Origin: a phage
Sequence record: PZ452594.1
Reading direction: 5' to 3' (one strand)
Length of the DNA stretch: 64,000 bases
Shown here: positions 12,420-19,896 of the stretch, in pieces
Position numbering within the stretch: position 1 is the first letter of the stretch
Layout: each line of letters begins with the position of its first letter
Position numbers and translations under genes: made by a program
The notes under the pieces: model-generated
The model's database searches: none
The model's input: the letters and a program-made list of their open reading frames with translations, nothing else
Told to the model about the DNA's origin: nothing

Positions 12420-12635
12420 TTACCCCAGTTTGACCATACAATCGCCGTATTTCCACTTAGAAATAGACTTTTCACCATTAGAATAATAAACTTCAAGTTT
12501 AGCACGATTATTTTTAATTTGAATAACCTTGGCTGTCATCAAAGTTCCATACCCATAATAAACTGCAACTTCATCACCTACATATACCGCGCTTCCGCGG
12601 TAATCATGAATATAGTCAGTTCCTTCGAGCATCAT
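12420..12635 (-). CDS. Hypothetical protein (71 aa)
   Basis: ORF overlapping nrdC stop by 4 nt. Confidence 0.45.
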   Translation of the reverse strand: MMLEGTDYIHDYRGSAVYVGDEVAVYYGYGTLMTAKVIQIKNNRAKLEVYYSNGEKSISKWKYGDCMVKLG

Positions 12636-12895
12636 TTAAAATATTCTCGCAGTTGGTCAAATCCACCAATATGACTTCCATCAGGAGCAAATACCTGGGG
12701 CATTGTCAAGCCGATTTGAGTATCACGACCTAGTTTAGTCAGAAGCTCAGCGATTTTCTCATCATCAAAAACACCTTTTTCCGGCATAATGTTGATAAAT
12801 TCAAACGGCTGTTTCTTCACGGTCAAAAGACGTTTTGCATTATCGCAATACACGCATTTATGAATGTTGCTATCATAACCATATACTTTAAACAT
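12632..12895 (-). CDS. nrdC: Thioredoxin (glutaredoxin-like) NrdC
   Basis: 87 aa with CVYC active site. Confidence 0.8.
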   Translation of the reverse strand: MFKVYGYDSNIHKCVYCDNAKRLLTVKKQPFEFINIMPEKGVFDDEKIAELLTKLGRDTQIGLTMPQVFAPDGSHIGGFDQLREYFK

Positions 12896-12896
12896 A

Positions 12897-13139
12897 TTAT
12901 TCCTTAATTCCTAGTACTTGTTTAAAAGTCTCGTCGTAATCAAGACTTTGGCCCGTTTGTTCTTTATGTTTGTATATAATATCACTTACTTCTGATAGCA
13001 TATTTTTATATGAACGAGTTAAAGCAGATTTAAGCACGCTGTATCTATCAGGAAATTTACCATGTTCATTATAATAAGCTATTGCTAATTCACGGACTGC
13101 CTTTTCAGCAGCCTCCATATATTCTTTACGCTTGGTCAT
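12897..13139 (-). CDS. Hypothetical protein (80 aa)
   Basis: ORF. Confidence 0.5.
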
Positions 13140-13141
13140 TT

Positions 13142-13531
13142 TTAATCCAAAATATTATTAGGCATTGGTTGAACACTCACAAGTTCTTTAAAGAACTCAG
13201 TAGAGTCAGGCAATTTAACCATTTCCGGAGCATGCTTACTGAATTTATGTTTACATTGACGGCATTTATATTCAAGCTCTGGTTTACGCCAGTTAATCAA
13301 CTGAACTTGTTCAGTACCGCATTCAGGGCAATTAGGAACGTTTTTAGAAGCTCTTTCACGTCGTTCAACCATAGCCATAATAGCATCCCATGCTGGAGGT
13401 TTAAAATCTAAATCGTCGCAGCCGTGAATCTTTCCACGCATTTCCATATCATCTTCCTCACCAGCCATAATAATTTTAATTAAACTGGAATTACTTGAAG
13501 CTGCAATGTCTTCTAATAAACGCTTTTTCAT
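13142..13531 (-). CDS. Hypothetical zinc-ribbon protein (129 aa)
   Basis: CPECG...CRQC four-cysteine motif. Confidence 0.5.
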
Positions 13532-14457
13532 TTCAATACCTCAATAGCATTACGTAAACCATTTGCTTTTGCATTAAGAGCTTTTAACAATTTGGTGTGT
13601 TCTGCAATTTGGGCTTCAACTTCAATCAAACGGGCATTGAGATATTCACGTTCTTCACTCAGATTATCAACCTTTTCTACTTTAGGCTCTTTTACAACTG
13701 TCTTATATGTATTAGGGTTCTTCAGTTTAATTAGAATGCGTGAACTGTATAACATTGAACCATTATCTTCGGTTTCGTCATACATTTCCACTACGTCCAT
13801 AATTTTTAACATCATGCGGAGTTTATAAGACAACGAACGAATAGTTTTGTTGTGCTTATTAATTTCTTTAGCTGTCATGGTGCCAAGATTACGTGAGTAA
13901 TAATAAGGAACCTGGATATTAATTAATACTGATGAACCACCTGGCTTGTGTGTTACTTCATCAGCAATAACCCAGTCCTTAACATGAACTGTATTTGTAC
14001 GGTCATCGCCCGCGGTAAATAGTTTGCGAGCATGCTTAAAAAGCATATTCACTTGGTCATTGAATTGACAAGCAAATTTATCAGCAAATTTAGTTTCAGG
14101 AATGGTAGAAAACCAATCAGCCAAATGAGTCTTTTTAACATCATTAACAATAGTAAATTCAACCAAATCGGTTATAGATGTCTCAGATTTAATGAAGCTC
14201 GGCTTCATAAAGTTTTTAATGTTCTCATGAGCTACAGTAGAAGATAACATACGAGAACGTTTAAACCATTCAAGCAAATTGCCTAACGAATGAGAATAAG
14301 CGTTTTGAGTATCTTTACAGATATGATTTTCCTGACCAACATATTGAAGGAAATCACGAAGAATATTATTGATTACTGCTCTGTGTCCTATCTGATAATT
14401 ACGATGTTTAGTAATAAGACTGTCAAAATAATCAATATAATGTTTACGAGTTTTCAT
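13528..14457 (-). CDS. Hypothetical protein (309 aa) with C-terminal coiled coil; nrdC-downstream cluster
   Basis: ORF; C-terminal heptad-like helix. Confidence 0.55.
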   Translation of the reverse strand: MKTRKHYIDYFDSLITKHRNYQIGHRAVINNILRDFLQYVGQENHICKDTQNAYSHSLGNLLEWFKRSRMLSSTVAHENIKNFMKPSFIKSETSITDLVEFTIVNDVKKTHLADWFSTIPETKFADKFACQFNDQVNMLFKHARKLFTAGDDRTNTVHVKDWVIADEVTHKPGGSSVLINIQVPYYYSRNLGTMTAKEINKHNKTIRSLSYKLRMMLKIMDVVEMYDETEDNGSMLYSSRILIKLKNPNTYKTVVKEPKVEKVDNLSEEREYLNARLIEVEAQIAEHTKLLKALNAKANGLRNAIEVLK

Positions 14458-14509
14458 GTTCTTCTCACTTGGTTAATGGTTTATACTCCGAGCCATCCTT
14501 GGCTTTAAA

Positions 14510-15508
14510 TTACTTAATTAACTGTAAAGCTTGTTCAAGACGATCAAGACGATTAACGGATTCTTCCCAAATCTTTTTAGCCTGCTCATATTCTTTCTGC
14601 GCTTTATTAGAAATTTCTAGAACTTCTTTATAAGCTTTTTCTAATGCAATAACTTCTGGACGAATTTCTACCGGTTCAGGTGAATCATCAAGACATTCCA
14701 TTAGTTCCTCAAGGGTAGTTTCTTCTTTAGGAGTATTCACAATTTCATCACATTTTTGTTGGTAAATTTCTTTACTAGTAGGTGAATAAGTACATTTCAC
14801 TTCACGAAGACTAACTACAATTTTATATCCTTCCCAACCGCATATATTCTTAAAAGGATATGTATGAATATTTTCTACTGTTTCCATACAGCCCAAAACC
14901 GCCTCTAATTGATAAGTTATAGTGCTAGCAATTGAGAAAAATTTATTAATATTCTTTTGGTTAGCGTTTGGTGTAAAAAATCCATAATTCACAAAAATAG
15001 CTACTTTATTTTCATCAAGCTCATATTCTTTTACGATAATCATATCAGAAGCCAAAGGATGAATTTGACGATAATCGCCATAACATAATTTAGAAGCTGA
15101 TTTTAGAATTTGTCCTTTGAAAAGTCTGAAATTACTAATCCAACGACGAGTAAAAATATTCTCAGGGTCTTCTTTATTAAGATGATAAGAATTAACATCA
15201 CCGAACCAATTATATCCTACTACATCTTTAGTTCGTTTAATTTCTTTCCCAAATTTACTAAGAATATCTCTGTTGACTAAGTATGAAAGAAGACGAGACC
15301 CTTTAAAGGTTTTCTTAATGTCATCTTTATCTGTACGACTAGAAATTTCACGAACTTCATGAATAAATTTGCCGGAAGAAACAATACTTGCATCAGTATT
15401 ATTGAGCCATTGATTGATAATAGAAATCACACTATTCTGACTAGACATAGGTTTAACTTTATCATCAATAACGCTGTTGAACGATTTAATATATTCGTTG
15501 CGAGTCAT
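14510..15508 (-). CDS. Hypothetical protein (about 332 aa) with C-terminal coiled coil
   Basis: ORF; start at ATG 15506-15508 preceded by GAGGAG SD. Confidence 0.55.
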   Translation of the reverse strand: MTRNEYIKSFNSVIDDKVKPMSSQNSVISIINQWLNNTDASIVSSGKFIHEVREISSRTDKDDIKKTFKGSRLLSYLVNRDILSKFGKEIKRTKDVVGYNWFGDVNSYHLNKEDPENIFTRRWISNFRLFKGQILKSASKLCYGDYRQIHPLASDMIIVKEYELDENKVAIFVNYGFFTPNANQKNINKFFSIASTITYQLEAVLGCMETVENIHTYPFKNICGWEGYKIVVSLREVKCTYSPTSKEIYQQKCDEIVNTPKEETTLEELMECLDDSPEPVEIRPEVIALEKAYKEVLEISNKAQKEYEQAKKIWEESVNRLDRLEQALQLIK

Positions 15509-15565
15509 ATTAATCTCCTCAGTAGAAAGTAAGAACATTATACCACATCCTTGTGGCGAAGTAAA

Positions 15566-16570
15566 CTAGTTTAGTGCATTTAGTGCGTTGTTCAATTTAG
15601 AACGTTGCTTCGTGAGATTTTTTACTTTTTCTTGGGCTTTTTCTAGCATCTTTTCAGCTTCTAACACTTCATTAGTTGCTTTAACGAGTTCATCATCTAC
15701 TGCCTTGATAGACTTCTCAATCGCATCCGCGTGCCATTTTTCAACAGGTTTAAGACTCGGATTTTCAACAGGAAGAAAATTCACTTTATTGAATTTCCAT
15801 GCATCATTATTACCTGAACTATACATCCAAAATTTAGGATCGTTTGATGAGTAATTAGTTTGGGGTTCAGGTTTTTTCTCTTGTGTAACTTCGTCCTTTC
15901 TCAAAAAATCATATTTAAATGAAACGATCATATCAAGTTCATATGTTGTCGTATCTAATTTAAATCGTTCGAAATGCTGCGAAATCTTAGATTGAACAGC
16001 AGCAACAACATCCATATACTTAAATGCTTCTGTCAGCTGTGATTTAAGACATTCACAAATTGAAAGAGAATTTTTTGTATTAGGTTTAAAGCTAATTCGT
16101 GCAGTTCTATTATTTTCTTTAGATGGTCTTACTTCCATCTGAAGAGTATAACCATCAAATTTCAGATTCTTTAAGTTAATATCAGAACCTTTTAATCGAC
16201 TAGCCGTCGACAAAATTTGCTTTAATTGTTTACGGAATAGAGCAATAAATCTCCATTCAATACGATAATGATTTGGATTGAAAAATCCAGATGATAAATC
16301 GACCTTACTCTGACCAACACCTTGAACAAATAGAGGATTTTTATAATCAATAGTTTTACAGAAATCGGTGAGCTGCTCACGAGCAGTCATTTGTGTAATA
16401 TACCCCGCTTTACTAAAATGACGTAACCATTCACTGCTATTCATATATTTAAAGTGAATATCACGATTAACTTTATCAGGGTCTAAATTATTTTGGCACA
16501 AAAATGTCATAACATCGCGAGTATAGCTGGCATTACGAACCATATCTTCAATTTGAGAACGAGTTTTCAT
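15566..16570 (-). CDS. Hypothetical protein (334 aa) with C-terminal coiled coil
   Basis: ORF. Confidence 0.55.
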   Translation of the reverse strand: MKTRSQIEDMVRNASYTRDVMTFLCQNNLDPDKVNRDIHFKYMNSSEWLRHFSKAGYITQMTAREQLTDFCKTIDYKNPLFVQGVGQSKVDLSSGFFNPNHYRIEWRFIALFRKQLKQILSTASRLKGSDINLKNLKFDGYTLQMEVRPSKENNRTARISFKPNTKNSLSICECLKSQLTEAFKYMDVVAAVQSKISQHFERFKLDTTTYELDMIVSFKYDFLRKDEVTQEKKPEPQTNYSSNDPKFWMYSSGNNDAWKFNKVNFLPVENPSLKPVEKWHADAIEKSIKAVDDELVKATNEVLEAEKMLEKAQEKVKNLTKQRSKLNNALNALN

Positions 16571-16578
16571 GGTGTTCC

Positions 16579-17487
16579 TTAAGATTTAAGTAAATCAACA
16601 ATTTTAATTAATTTTTCACGTTCAGATTTAGCTTTACTACTCAGTCCAGATAGTCTGAAAATTTCATCGTCATATTGTTGAATAGAAATATTCAGCTCTT
16701 CAATTTGCTTATTAAAATAATCAATTTGTTCAGAATGTTTTTCGTTACTACGAACTGGTACAGGTTTTGTAGGAAATTTAGTTAAACTGGATTCATCCGG
16801 GCGATAAATTAAAATGCAATTTGAACCAATCGGGCATTTAGCACCAGATGAATATTCTAACGTTCCAGCTTCTTTTAAAACTTCAAAAGCTAAACAGAGA
16901 TGATGCCCCATATTAACATAATCTGTAGAGCGAGCTCTGATATAATAATCATCGCCGCGAATACTAAATTTAAAGCATTTAAGGTCTTCTGTATTATTGG
17001 TCTTAAAAATCATTTGTTTATCTAGACCTTTAGCTAATCGAGCGCCTAATGCTAATAATCGTCGTTGATTTTCCCACAAATCCGCAATCATTTGATCGAA
17101 TGACAATTTCGGCATTAGTCTACCATAAAGGTCATATCCTTTATTATAATTGCGAAGAATTTCACTCGCGTTAATACGAGACAACGCTCCAATTTTATTA
17201 AGGGCTTTCATGATGCGATTAGATAAACCCATTCCAGACCCGTTTGTTCGCTGTAAATGTTTTTCTAATCCAAATCCAATATCAACTTTAAACTTATCTA
17301 AAATTTCTGCATGAACATCTCTGTCAATAACATTCAAATCCAAAGTTGGGTTAAATCTATGAAAAAATTTATCTGGCTCTCCACGACGAAGTACAGTCCA
17401 TTCATTCAATTTTTTATTAACTAAAGATTTAATTACTGCATTGACATTATTAATTACTACTGACATATTTTCCTCACTCAATTTCAA
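16579..17487 (-). CDS. Hypothetical protein (302 aa) with C-terminal coiled coil
   Basis: ORF. Confidence 0.55.
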   Translation of the reverse strand: MKLSEENMSVVINNVNAVIKSLVNKKLNEWTVLRRGEPDKFFHRFNPTLDLNVIDRDVHAEILDKFKVDIGFGLEKHLQRTNGSGMGLSNRIMKALNKIGALSRINASEILRNYNKGYDLYGRLMPKLSFDQMIADLWENQRRLLALGARLAKGLDKQMIFKTNNTEDLKCFKFSIRGDDYYIRARSTDYVNMGHHLCLAFEVLKEAGTLEYSSGAKCPIGSNCILIYRPDESSLTKFPTKPVPVRSNEKHSEQIDYFNKQIEELNISIQQYDDEIFRLSGLSSKAKSEREKLIKIVDLLKS

Positions 17488-17881
17488 TTTTACTAAATAC
17501 GCAGAATATGATGGAAAAGACTATATAAGCACCGCATACAGATTGAACTAATACCATTCCAAAGAACCAAACAATATTATCAAACAATGTCTGTTTTACG
17601 TCGAAAGGACGTAAACTTACAGTAATATTATCGCCTTTTTCTATTGATGAATACATCTCTGGGGAAATATATTCGCTAAATCTATAACCGTCTTTGAGTT
17701 CATATACGGCAATAAACGATAAACTAGACCCCTTTCCTTGAGTTCCTGTAAGGGTATTAACTACAGTAACATCATAATCTTTATAATGCATATAATCATT
17801 AATTGCGTAATAACCATATGCAATTACTATACATAAACAACATATCAATAAATTCAATCTTTTAATTATCAACTGTTTCAT
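17474..17881 (-). CDS. Membrane protein (135 aa, N- and C-terminal TM segments)
   Basis: Hydrophobic stretches LLICCLCIVIAYGYYAI and FFGMVLVQSVCGAYIVFSIIFCVF. Confidence 0.5.
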   Translation of the reverse strand: MKQLIIKRLNLLICCLCIVIAYGYYAINDYMHYKDYDVTVVNTLTGTQGKGSSLSFIAVYELKDGYRFSEYISPEMYSSIEKGDNITVSLRPFDVKQTLFDNIVWFFGMVLVQSVCGAYIVFSIIFCVFSKIEIE

Positions 17882-17936
17882 AATAATCTCAATTAAAAGG
17901 GCTTAGAACCATTATACCATCCTTGGTATAAAGCGG

Positions 17937-18464
17937 TTATGCGAGTACCGTCTTTAACCGTTCTTCAAACTTCCGAAGAGTATTCTGGCGTTCAGCTCTT
18001 TGCTTTTTGTAAGTTTCAATACGCTCTGAAATGAGAGTGTATCGTTCATTTACTGATTCTTTCATAAAATCAGGAATTTCACGAGAAGCTTTAATCTCGT
18101 CAAATTTATCAATAACAGCTTGCTCTTCAGCAATTAAGTTATCATACATCAAAATATCTTTCTTGATGAACTCAATATCTTCTTGAGTTACACGAGATAA
18201 TTTAGATGCTTTATCCTTTTTGTACTGTTCGTTAGTATCACGAGACCAGTGTAATGTACGATTTTTATTCGTATTCTTATAAATTTCTACAATACCAATC
18301 TCATCAATAATAACGATCCAATTCCAACGGGATTTGTAAATTTGTCCTCCATCAACAGTGATTTCACCTCCGATTGAGATGTCATTAAAGAACTTGCTTT
18401 GTGCTTCAGATTTAAATTTACCATCATTGTAGTTTACCAAGTTGAAAATATCTTTAGCATTCAT
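17937..18464 (-). CDS. Hypothetical protein (about 175 aa)
   Basis: Start at MNAKDIF with GGAGGA SD; early promoter just upstream. Confidence 0.5.
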   Translation of the reverse strand: MNAKDIFNLVNYNDGKFKSEAQSKFFNDISIGGEITVDGGQIYKSRWNWIVIIDEIGIVEIYKNTNKNRTLHWSRDTNEQYKKDKASKLSRVTQEDIEFIKKDILMYDNLIAEEQAVIDKFDEIKASREIPDFMKESVNERYTLISERIETYKKQRAERQNTLRKFEERLKTVLA

Positions 18465-18491
18465 TTTTGTTCCTCCGTAGTTGATAGTTGT

Positions 18492-18521
18492 ATAGTACCA
18501 CAGAGGAACAGTCTTGTAAAC
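18492..18521 (-). promoter_or_regulatory. T4-type early promoter
   Basis: GTTTAC-N18-TACTAT on minus strand. Confidence 0.5.
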
Positions 18522-18523
18522 CA

Positions 18524-18838
18524 CTAAAAGAAACTTCTTTCACAATTTTTTCCACTGAACCAAGCGCTCACTGCTTTCTTAGTCTCAGGAGCAGTGTTAT
18601 CCATAAACCATTCAAAGGCAGCCTTTTTATGATTCTGGAGGGCTTCTCGGGCTTTAATCTGCTCACGGTCTATTAACACTAACATATGAGCCTTTCTTGT
18701 CACCAAGGGCTTCTTATGATTCTTGGAGTATTCCCAGTCATTTGTCCAACGCATTGTCGTTGCGAACTGATGAACCGCGTCTTTAATTTTAGTTTCGTAA
18801 ATTTCACGAGCCTTTGAGTATAACATCACTACCTCCAT
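18524..18838 (-). CDS. Hypothetical protein (104 aa)
   Basis: ORF. Confidence 0.5.
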   Translation of the reverse strand: MEVVMLYSKAREIYETKIKDAVHQFATTMRWTNDWEYSKNHKKPLVTRKAHMLVLIDREQIKAREALQNHKKAAFEWFMDNTAPETKKAVSAWFSGKNCERSFF

Positions 18839-18927
18839 TTACCAGTTTAATTCTAATCATCTTTTTGATGGCAGTCCATATAATCTATTTCTGAACTGCC
18901 TTTTTGTCATAGAAGTCCTCTTATGAA

Positions 18928-19896
18928 TTATTTCAGAAGAGTAACCTCAGCGATTTCTTCCCAACCGTTTTTGTCGGTCATAATAAAGTCAGCAAGATAA
19001 AGAGCAGTACGCAGTGAAACATTACGTAAACGATTAACATTGACTTTCATCCATGATAATGCTTTATAAGTTTCTTCATCAGAAAGACCGCGCTTTTGCA
19101 TCATGTCAGTTGAAAGAATAACATCTTCAACCCTGACCATAATTTCTTCATTAGTGTGAACACCCAAATCCAAATAAACTGAGCGGGACACTAATGCTTG
19201 TAAATGTGGAGCAAGTTTAGTACCACGGTCTAATTCGCGGTCAATGTCAACGTTTGTGATAAAAACAATCGTTCCTTTAAATTCAAACTCACGCTCAATG
19301 CCTTTTTCTTCTAAGTAAGAAGATGCGGTGCTCCAGCAGACTTTACGGGTCTCTCCAGTGTCCAGAGCAGCTTTCAGAAGATTAAGAATGTCCATATCAG
19401 AGAAAACATCCACATCATCAATCAAAAGGACAGAATTCTCTTCACGATTATTCCAAAGCTGCTCATAAAGACCAATACCAGAGATTTTACCATTAATGCT
19501 TTTATATTCAATGTATCCAATATCATTTGCTTTATTTAAAGCTTTATCTAAAGAATACGTTTTACCAATACCTGCTGCACCAGAGATAATTAATGAACGA
19601 ATGTTTCCGTTAATAATACCATTCGTCATCATTCCCATAACATTAAATCTTTTATTAATGCGGGTTTTCATATCTTCATACGATTCTTTAACTTCTTCAA
19701 CTTTTACACCATCATATGAAATGTCTGATTTGTAAACCCAAACACCGCGACGTTTACCGTCAATTTCAACAAAAACTTTACCATCTCCTTGTGCATCTAC
19801 CGGAGCATTATCTGGGAACCATTCGCCTAAGAGCTCAAAAGTTCCAGAAATTTCTTTACCGAAGTAGATACCCTTATTGATAGTTACAGTTTTCAT
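18928..19896 (-). CDS. P-loop ATPase (AAA-like), function unknown
   Basis: Walker A GAAGIGKT and Walker B LLIDDVD. Confidence 0.6.
   Translation of the reverse strand: MKTVTINKGIYFGKEISGTFELLGEWFPDNAPVDAQGDGKVFVEIDGKRRGVWVYKSDISYDGVKVEEVKESYEDMKTRINKRFNVMGMMTNGIINGNIRSLIISGAAGIGKTYSLDKALNKANDIGYIEYKSINGKISGIGLYEQLWNNREENSVLLIDDVDVFSDMDILNLLKAALDTGETRKVCWSTASSYLEEKGIEREFEFKGTIVFITNVDIDRELDRGTKLAPHLQALVSRSVYLDLGVHTNEEIMVRVEDVILSTDMMQKRGLSDEETYKALSWMKVNVNRLRNVSLRTALYLADFIMTDKNGWEEIAEVTLLK

Follow-up and report, generated by a model that had tools for sequence, protein, structure and literature searches.

Are four consecutive genes in the early region of a T4-like phage diverged copies of a single gene, and what might such copies do for the phage? 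The question is raised by a stretch of 64,000 nucleotides (nt) of phage DNA (record PZ452594.1; referred to in full as the window). In it, an initial annotation had noticed four open reading frames (ORFs) between positions 13528 and 17487 and proposed that they form a tandem paralog array in the block downstream of nrdC. All four are present on the minus strand where they had been placed, the last of them, 16579-17487, being 302 amino acids (aa) long, and annotated relatives name them nrdC.3, nrdC.4, nrdC.5 and nrdC.6. The analysis described here shows that they are four diverged copies of one gene specific to T4-like phages, with a membership that is very secure for nrdC.3, nrdC.4 and nrdC.5 and quite probable for nrdC.6. 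The array is also dispensable and fast-evolving, and its proteins are modular in architecture.

Relationship of nrdC.3, nrdC.4 and nrdC.5

The only significant pair in an all-pairs BLASTP of the four proteins is nrdC.3/nrdC.4 (E 8e-7, 25% identity over 226 head residues, 3-224 versus 2-212). Profile comparisons were therefore needed, and family profiles (C3, C4, C5 and C6) were constructed from database homologues and syntenic loci of other genera. hhalign connects C3 with C4 at 98% (E 1e-14), C4 with C5 at 90% (E 1.4e-6, 245 columns), and C3 with C5 at 80%; the BLASTP and hhalign E values among the three proteins span 1e-14 to 1e-5. Upon removal of the tails, C3-C4 scores 98.5% and C4-C5 scores 87.3% (E 3.7e-6). 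The persistence of the C4-C5 match without tails indicates that the similarity resides in the heads. Hence the all-against-all alignment and profile comparison, which the initial annotation had named as the check on its proposal, reveal similarity that extends beyond the low-complexity helices, and the array downstream of nrdC holds up for these three genes.

The family libraries give a coarser picture. nrdC.3 and nrdC.4 are the only two of the four that fall in one PHROG, phrog_1435, whose hidden Markov model (HMM) matches both over their full length (E 7.8e-116 and 1.2e-165, respectively). Homologues of nrdC.4 carry PF26897, as does P0057, a fusion of NrdC.5 and NrdC.3 described below. PF23882 matches nrdC.5 with 393 bits (E 1.2e-117; protein residues 1-334, model positions 1-307 of 307; gathering score 30 bits), and nrdC.3, nrdC.4 and nrdC.6 are without a match to it. 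The phrog_2257 HMM covers residues 1-295 of nrdC.6 (E 1.4e-152), and PF26899 is present on 105/105 nrdC.6 homologues. A Pfam search for a known relative returned only sub-threshold coiled-coil noise (AAA_23, CENP-F, DUF4164, PHL, DUF3905), the only match in a PADLOC search was that of a tail to BrxC (0.004), and a search of the PDB by sequence yielded no related solved structure.

Placement of nrdC.6

The direct hhalign comparisons of nrdC.6 with nrdC.3, nrdC.4 and nrdC.5 lie at background level (P 0.0015-0.05), while a merged C3+C4+C5 profile gives P 4.4e-4. As a control, 49 other ORFs of the window of at least 150 aa served as decoys, the best of which reached P 0.01. The direct values are too near this decoy floor, and bridging families were therefore needed. 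An exhaustive HMMER search and tblastn uncovered homologues that occupy this locus as a single copy in three other genera and were grouped as family K (Kanagawavirus: IME523, CIP9, Kosakonia 305, PEi26), family M (Marfavirus), and family J (Jiaodavirus). C6 matches K at 88.5% (E 2.7e-6) over 162 columns that cover motif 2 and the beta-beta-alpha-beta-beta part of the head described in the next section. K in turn matches M at 96.4% (E 1e-9) and J at 92.9%, and the chain is closed by the matches of C4 and C5 with M (93% and 94%) and of C4 and C3 with J (87% and 86%).

Cross-matches between PHROGs follow the same path. The 335-aa protein of IME523, a member of phrog_26858, also matches phrog_2257 at 7.2e-6 and phrog_2351 at 1.4e-6, and the Marfa protein of the same PHROG matches phrog_1435 at 1.4e-10 over its full length. 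Since three independent lines, the bridging sequences, the PHROG cross-matches and the AlphaFold2 models, agree, it is quite probable that nrdC.6 belongs to the superfamily of nrdC.3-5, and with it the proposed tandem array is extended to all four genes. The ORFs of 256-262 aa located beside the single-copy homologues in IME523, Marfa and JD18 were considered as further relatives and found to be unrelated.

Architecture of the Heads

Each protein has a head of helices plus a beta-beta-alpha-beta-beta part, continues with a disordered linker in which proline and charged residues are abundant, and ends in a heptad helix of ~50 aa. AlphaFold2 models were obtained for NrdC.5 (mdd753f0aeb61) and NrdC.6 (m5ef9e7d3c2d0) from alignments A2 and A3, with a mean predicted local distance difference test (pLDDT) of 74.8 and 76.1, respectively, and were compared by the order of their elements and by their common targets in BFVD. 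In both models the N-terminal region is followed by two helices (motif 1), a loop, and two further helices (motif 2, ending A-S/R-R-L). Both then continue with two strands, a helix (motif 3), two strands, the linker, and a long helix. Foldseek against BFVD gives significant matches only to uncharacterised 300-375-aa proteins of T4-like phages, and five of these targets (fHyAci03, Mineola, Acj61, Merlin and fHe-Yen9-01; E 5e-7 to 1e-3) are common to NrdC.5 and NrdC.6. We also note a weak BFVD match (2.4e-3) of the NrdC.5 model to a 175-aa protein of Klebsiella phage KPV15.

Motifs 1 and 2, aligned by hhalign, can be located in all four proteins. The motif-1 pattern [LI][ST]x3[AN]x[ED]x[IL]xx[FY], which was defined post hoc, has exactly four matches in a six-frame translation of the 64-kb window, one per array gene and at colinear positions.

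Tails and Linkers

The initial annotation had described a linker and a heptad-like C-terminal helix in each ORF, and this description is borne out. When phased from the C-terminus, the tails of all four proteins follow one common heptad register, and over 56 residues the hydrophobic share is 75-94% at a/d positions versus 17-33% elsewhere. Every tail keeps the heptad pattern, with hydrophobic residues at a/d, for five heptads or more, which is the definition of a parallel coiled coil used here. The tails further share a similar ending, L-x-x-[AI]-[ILV]-x-x-[LI]-K/N. Their C-terminally anchored BLOSUM scores exceed those of shuffled sequences (z 1.9-3.6), but most pairs fail to exceed heptad-shift controls; the tails alone therefore do not prove homology.

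The NrdC.5 model has a single unbroken tail helix, whereas that of NrdC.6 is predicted as two helices, 242-271 and 277-294, interrupted at SGLSS, and its tail is therefore considered a broken helix. A DDEIFRL motif is invariant across the NrdC.6 family. The NrdC.5 linker has a pLDDT of 27-47 and a gap fraction of 0.11 in the family alignment, and the linker before the NrdC.6 tail is likewise of low confidence. Indels cluster in the linker, and conservation of the tail equals or exceeds that of the head in every family. In the NrdC.4 family, for example, conservation is 0.76 in the tail versus 0.61 in the head, and the last 20 aa of NrdC.3 are 100% identical to T4 against 25-70% in the head. 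Because of this conservation, a role of the tail in oligomerisation or in binding to a common target, as the initial annotation had suggested, appears plausible.

Two further proteins with tails of this kind were encountered. P0237 (173 aa; L018:120-641 on an ENA contig of only 803 bp) joins an unrelated N-terminal part of 118 aa to the exact last 54 residues of the NrdC.5 tail of the window, and could have arisen by a natural head swap or as a chimera of the assembly. The neighbouring gene nrdC.8 (17937-18464, minus strand; 175 aa) also ends in a heptad helix. It is for the present rejected as a fifth member of the array, as its heptad register is off by one residue and its hhalign comparison (P 0.03) reveals no detectable homology.

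Distribution and Divergence

The family is confined to phages as far as an exhaustive HMMER search with a merged profile can tell: at E 1e-3, it returned 18 proteins among 1.84 billion cluster representatives, all of them phage-like. No cellular homologue was found in that search, and apart from the bridging sequences P0234 and P0239 it provided no lead to a function. Kanagawa-, Marfa- and Jiaodavirus have a single copy, Mosig-, Dhaka- and Gaprivervirus-type genomes have three, and Tequatrovirus has four. The copies in Mosigvirus are 6-, 5- and 3-like and those in Dhaka- and Gaprivervirus-type loci are 6-, 5- and 4-like, the order being constant.

The paralogs diverge at different rates. Compared with T4, identity and the ratio of nonsynonymous to synonymous substitution rates (dN/dS) are 98% and 0.06 for nrdC.6, 91-93% and 0.14 for NrdC.5, 91% and 0.24 for nrdC.4, and only 60-61% and 0.30 for NrdC.3 (synonymous rate dS ~1); neighbouring genes mostly have a dN/dS of 0.00-0.08. 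nrdC.6 is both the most diverged and the most conserved of the paralogs. The head of NrdC.3 is a mosaic, whereas its first 60 residues and its tail are conserved. The NrdC.3 allele of the window is 77% identical to that of Mosigvirus MM02, within flanking genes that are 91-100% identical to T4. Its greater proximity to the Mosigvirus allele than to that of T4 (60%) indicates allele exchange. Across phages, nrdC.3 alleles fall into identity classes of ~60%, ~75% and >90%.

Losses within the array are frequent, and several rearranged forms were observed. In vB_EcoM_ACG-C40 (L004:5805-6216), a deletion joins nrdC.5 at codon ~68, within head motif 1, out of frame to nrdC.3 at codon ~238, so that nrdC.6 is the only one of the four genes kept. 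The metagenomic protein P0057 (299 aa) continues in frame from the middle part of NrdC.5 into the C-terminal half of NrdC.3, nrdC.4 being deleted; its junction, between KFNKVN and MLFKHARKLF, falls at a short stretch that is similar in both paralogs. A viral contig (L008:9950-10982) has a frameshift near GFF/TPE that divides nrdC.4 into two overlapping ORFs, representing either a pseudogene or a homopolymer sequencing error.

Possible Role of the Array

The ~4 kb of the T4 early region occupied by nrdC.3-6 had previously been linked to one genetic result only, that on nrdC.5. A T4 clone in which a deletion had taken away nrdC.5 does not plate on ECOR17 or on MG1655 carrying ECOR17 dsr1 (PMC9391042), and plasmid-borne T4 nrdC.5 restores plating on MG1655 carrying ECOR17 dsr1 (Srikant, Guegler and Laub 2022, PMC9391042). 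Dsr1 itself is an abortive-infection effector of the SIR2 type, and its tetratricopeptide repeat (TPR) sensor is reported to recognise phage major capsid proteins (2026 preprint, PMC12803255). Given its 91-93% identity to T4 NrdC.5, the protein encoded in the window is regarded as an ortholog that would have the same anti-Dsr1 role. The genetic context is in keeping with accessory functions, as are the natural deletions and frameshifts described above and the dN/dS of nrdC.3, nrdC.4 and nrdC.5, which is higher than in most neighbouring genes. The stretch nrdC.1-6 is among the large blocks that can be removed from T4 (PMC9825161), and the transposon mapping of the HIDEN-SEQ supplement gives nrdC.3-6 as non-essential in T4. 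Among the neighbours, gp49.2 is anti-OLD (PMC13096335) and nrdC.1 is anti-Septu (bioRxiv 10.1101/2025.11.20.689424). Within the literature library that was searched, no paper gives nrdC.3, nrdC.4 or nrdC.6, by name, a function or relationship.

With these data we lean slightly towards reading the array as an expanded family of counter-defence proteins, early and dispensable, in which the heads bind targets and the tails oligomerise. As T4 nrdC.5 switches off Dsr1, nrdC.3, nrdC.4 and nrdC.6 are good candidates for immune evasion. The anatomy suggests that the variable head would be the specificity module and would bind a host immune protein; for NrdC.5 the target would most likely be Dsr1 itself, perhaps its TPR sensor. 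The conserved tail would oligomerise the protein and thereby present several heads to an oligomeric target with high avidity, and duplication followed by divergence of the heads could have aimed the paralogs at other defence proteins or alleles.

A number of observations weigh against this reading. What has been published on NrdC.5 is genetic rescue by the T4 allele, which does not require direct binding. nrdC.6, with its low dN/dS, is under strong purifying selection, which is less in keeping with an arms race than with a conserved housekeeping or take-over function, and its direct profile comparisons with the other paralogs are at background. The predicted broken-helix tail of NrdC.6 could fold back on itself rather than oligomerise. 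Among the comparison rows consulted in the HIDEN-SEQ supplement, none flags nrdC.3-6.

The counter-defence reading can be taken further, to a form that is possible if doubtful: a modular platform, in which the coiled-coil tail builds an oligomer and a fast-exchanging head chooses the immune sensor, each paralog meeting a different defence protein, so that the host range of Tequatrovirus would have been widened by tandem duplication of one inhibitor. Possible targets of such a platform would be clades of capsid-recognising TPR-sensor proteins related to Dsr1 and Avs7, and P0057 and P0237 would capture head swapping in progress.

One rival is unlikely yet the strongest of those considered. It holds that the proteins are paralogs, but that all except NrdC.5 serve in early take-over of the host and bind conserved host complexes (e.g., transcription or nucleoid proteins), the anti-Dsr1 activity being a side effect or a recent specialisation.

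It is rather improbable that the four paralogs act jointly, with their tails forming a hetero-oligomeric coiled coil and thus one multi-headed complex. Such a complex is suggested by the heptad register common to the tails when counted from the C-terminus, together with their similar ending, by the conservation of the tail within families (equal to that of the head or higher), and by the arrangement of the genes, which are adjacent, in the same orientation, and separated by gaps of 8-57 nt. However, plasmid-borne nrdC.5 alone rescues a phage that lost nrdC.5 by deletion (the full extent of that deletion being unchecked), related genera have one copy only, and natural phages drop some members while retaining others; moreover, the tails differ strongly between paralogs, with anchored scores that are mostly no better than the heptad-shift controls. 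Convergence of unrelated accessory proteins, each with an independently gained coiled-coil tail, is already largely refuted for nrdC.3-5 and has very little chance overall, since the background-level comparisons of nrdC.6 and the heptad-helix end of nrdC.8, a neighbour without detectable homology, are outweighed by the head-only profile matches, the bridging families, the PHROG cross-matches, the colinear motifs exclusive to the four genes in the window, the conserved synteny, the matching order of secondary-structure elements, and the common BFVD targets.

Locus, Gene Starts and Gene Names

A stretch of ~5 kb around the array shares 98% identity with Escherichia phage vB-Eco-KMB22 and has matches in 742 phage records, nearly all of them T4-like phages from Escherichia, Shigella and Yersinia. 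The array lies downstream of endonuclease VII, pin and nrdC, on the minus strand, with nrdC.2 on one side and nrdC.7/nrdC.8 on the other. nrdC.7, nrdC.6 and nrdC.5 are only 7-8 nt apart and look co-transcribed. In KMB22, the closest relative (L001:9917-10636), a homing-endonuclease gene is situated between nrdC.9 and nrdC.10, and is absent from the window at 18839-18927. The coordinates of the features are summarized in Table 1.

Table 1. Genes, protein regions and promoter-like site of the nrdC.3-6 array, in window coordinates
Feature	Position	Strand	Remarks
nrdC.3	13528..14457	-	309 aa, starts MKTR; phrog_1435; nrdC.3 in KMB22 annotation
nrdC.4	14510..15508	-	332 aa from MTR start; phrog_1435; homologues carry PF26897
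nrdC.5	15566..16570	-	334 aa, starts MKTR; DUF7235 (PF23882) / phrog_2351
nrdC.6	16579..17466	-	295 aa from ATG (most likely start); phrog_2257; homologues carry PF26899
Head motif 1, NrdC.5 (HFSKAGYITQMTAREQLTDF)	16361..16420	-	hhalign-aligned
Head motif 1, equivalents	14209-14268 (nrdC.3), 15251-15310 (nrdC.4), 17146-17205 (nrdC.6)	-	
Head motif 2, NrdC.5 (FRKQLKQILSTASRLKGSDINLKNLKF)	16157..16237	-	helix ending A-S-R-L, then strand; hhalign-aligned
Head motif 2, equivalents	13972-14064, 15053-15130, 16999-17079	-	
NrdC.3 heptad helix	13531..13662	-	aa 266-309; heptad phasing
NrdC.4 heptad helix	14513..14659	-	aa 284-332; heptad phasing
NrdC.5 heptad helix	15569..15733	-	aa 280-334; heptad phasing; AlphaFold2 helix 278-333
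NrdC.6 helical tail	16582..16737	-	aa 244-295; AlphaFold2 helices 242-271 and 277-294
NrdC.5 linker	15743..15889	-	aa 228-276; disordered, Pro/Lys/Glu/Asn-rich; indels vary between phages
Promoter-like site, TTTACT-17-TATAAT with TG extension	15537..15565	-	directly upstream of nrdC.4; consensus scan, pattern match only

The beginnings MKTR or MTR, reported for three of the four proteins in the initial annotation, are indeed seen in three. The ORF 16579-17487 opens at a TTG (17487). The ATG at 17466 has a ribosome-binding site (GAGGAAAAT ATG) and is the start used in the T4 annotation; judged from these signals, it is most likely the start of nrdC.6, giving 295 aa, rather than the TTG. For nrdC.4, an ATG at 15538 would give a longer ORF; this codon lies within a promoter-like TTTACT-17-TGgTATAAT site, whereas the MTR start (15508) has a GAGGAG Shine-Dalgarno sequence and is retained in other genera. 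A promoter consensus scan of the region found 29 sites against 29.1 expected from shuffled sequence and is uninformative overall. The intergenic gaps 14458-14509, 15509-15565 and 17882-17936 (minus strand, ~55 nt each), which correspond to nrdC.4/3, nrdC.5/4 and nrdC.8/7, have in common a CAAGGATGG(T)ATAAT element similar to an extended -10 promoter, which is degenerate in front of nrdC.3.

Public records often call nrdC.1 to nrdC.11 (12897-19896) ‘thioredoxin’, because the gene names nrdC.x were taken over into the annotation. Only nrdC (12632-12895) encodes a glutaredoxin/thioredoxin-like protein. For nrdC.3-6 this identity is ruled out, since a Pfam scan with E up to 1 gave no thioredoxin or glutaredoxin match in the four proteins and none of their sequences contains a CxxC. 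The widespread misannotation is hereby corrected.

Comparison with Known Systems

The genes themselves and the published nrdC.5 phenotype were already known; what is new is one superfamily joining long-known T4 ORFs. Three orphan ORFs thereby become concrete candidates for anti-defence screens, and a domain map, specificity head and oligomerising tail, is suggested for NrdC.5 versus Dsr1. The array also offers a case for setting differences in copy number (1, 3 or 4) and mosaic alleles against the host ranges of T4-like genera.

The closest known counterpart is T4 NrdC.5 (DUF7235, PF23882), to which the ORF at 15566-16570 is orthologous by 91-93% identity, the same position, and a full-length Pfam match. 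It was treated as an isolated gene in PMC9391042, in contrast to its place here as one of four paralogs in a wider family of T4-like phages. DSAD1, the phage inhibitor of DSR2 (PMC10973363, PMC10981675, PMC11087589), follows the same proposed logic, in which a phage protein blocks a SIR2-type NADase sensor, most simply by binding; structural similarity of the array proteins to DSAD1 was not found. gp49.2, nrdC.1 and pin (a Lon inhibitor) belong to the same early, dispensable and variable block between endonuclease VII and nrdC.11 and display a common ‘one small gene, one defence system’ pattern. These are small, unrelated single-domain proteins, whereas those of nrdC.3-6 are three to four times larger, modular, and tandem-expanded. 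Finally, phrog_1435/PF26897, phrog_2351/PF23882, phrog_2257/PF26899, phrog_26858 and phrog_23608 are families of unknown function, each ORF belonging to one. The PHROG and Pfam libraries keep these families separate, whereas the profile, cross-match and model evidence presented here unites them as one superfamily.

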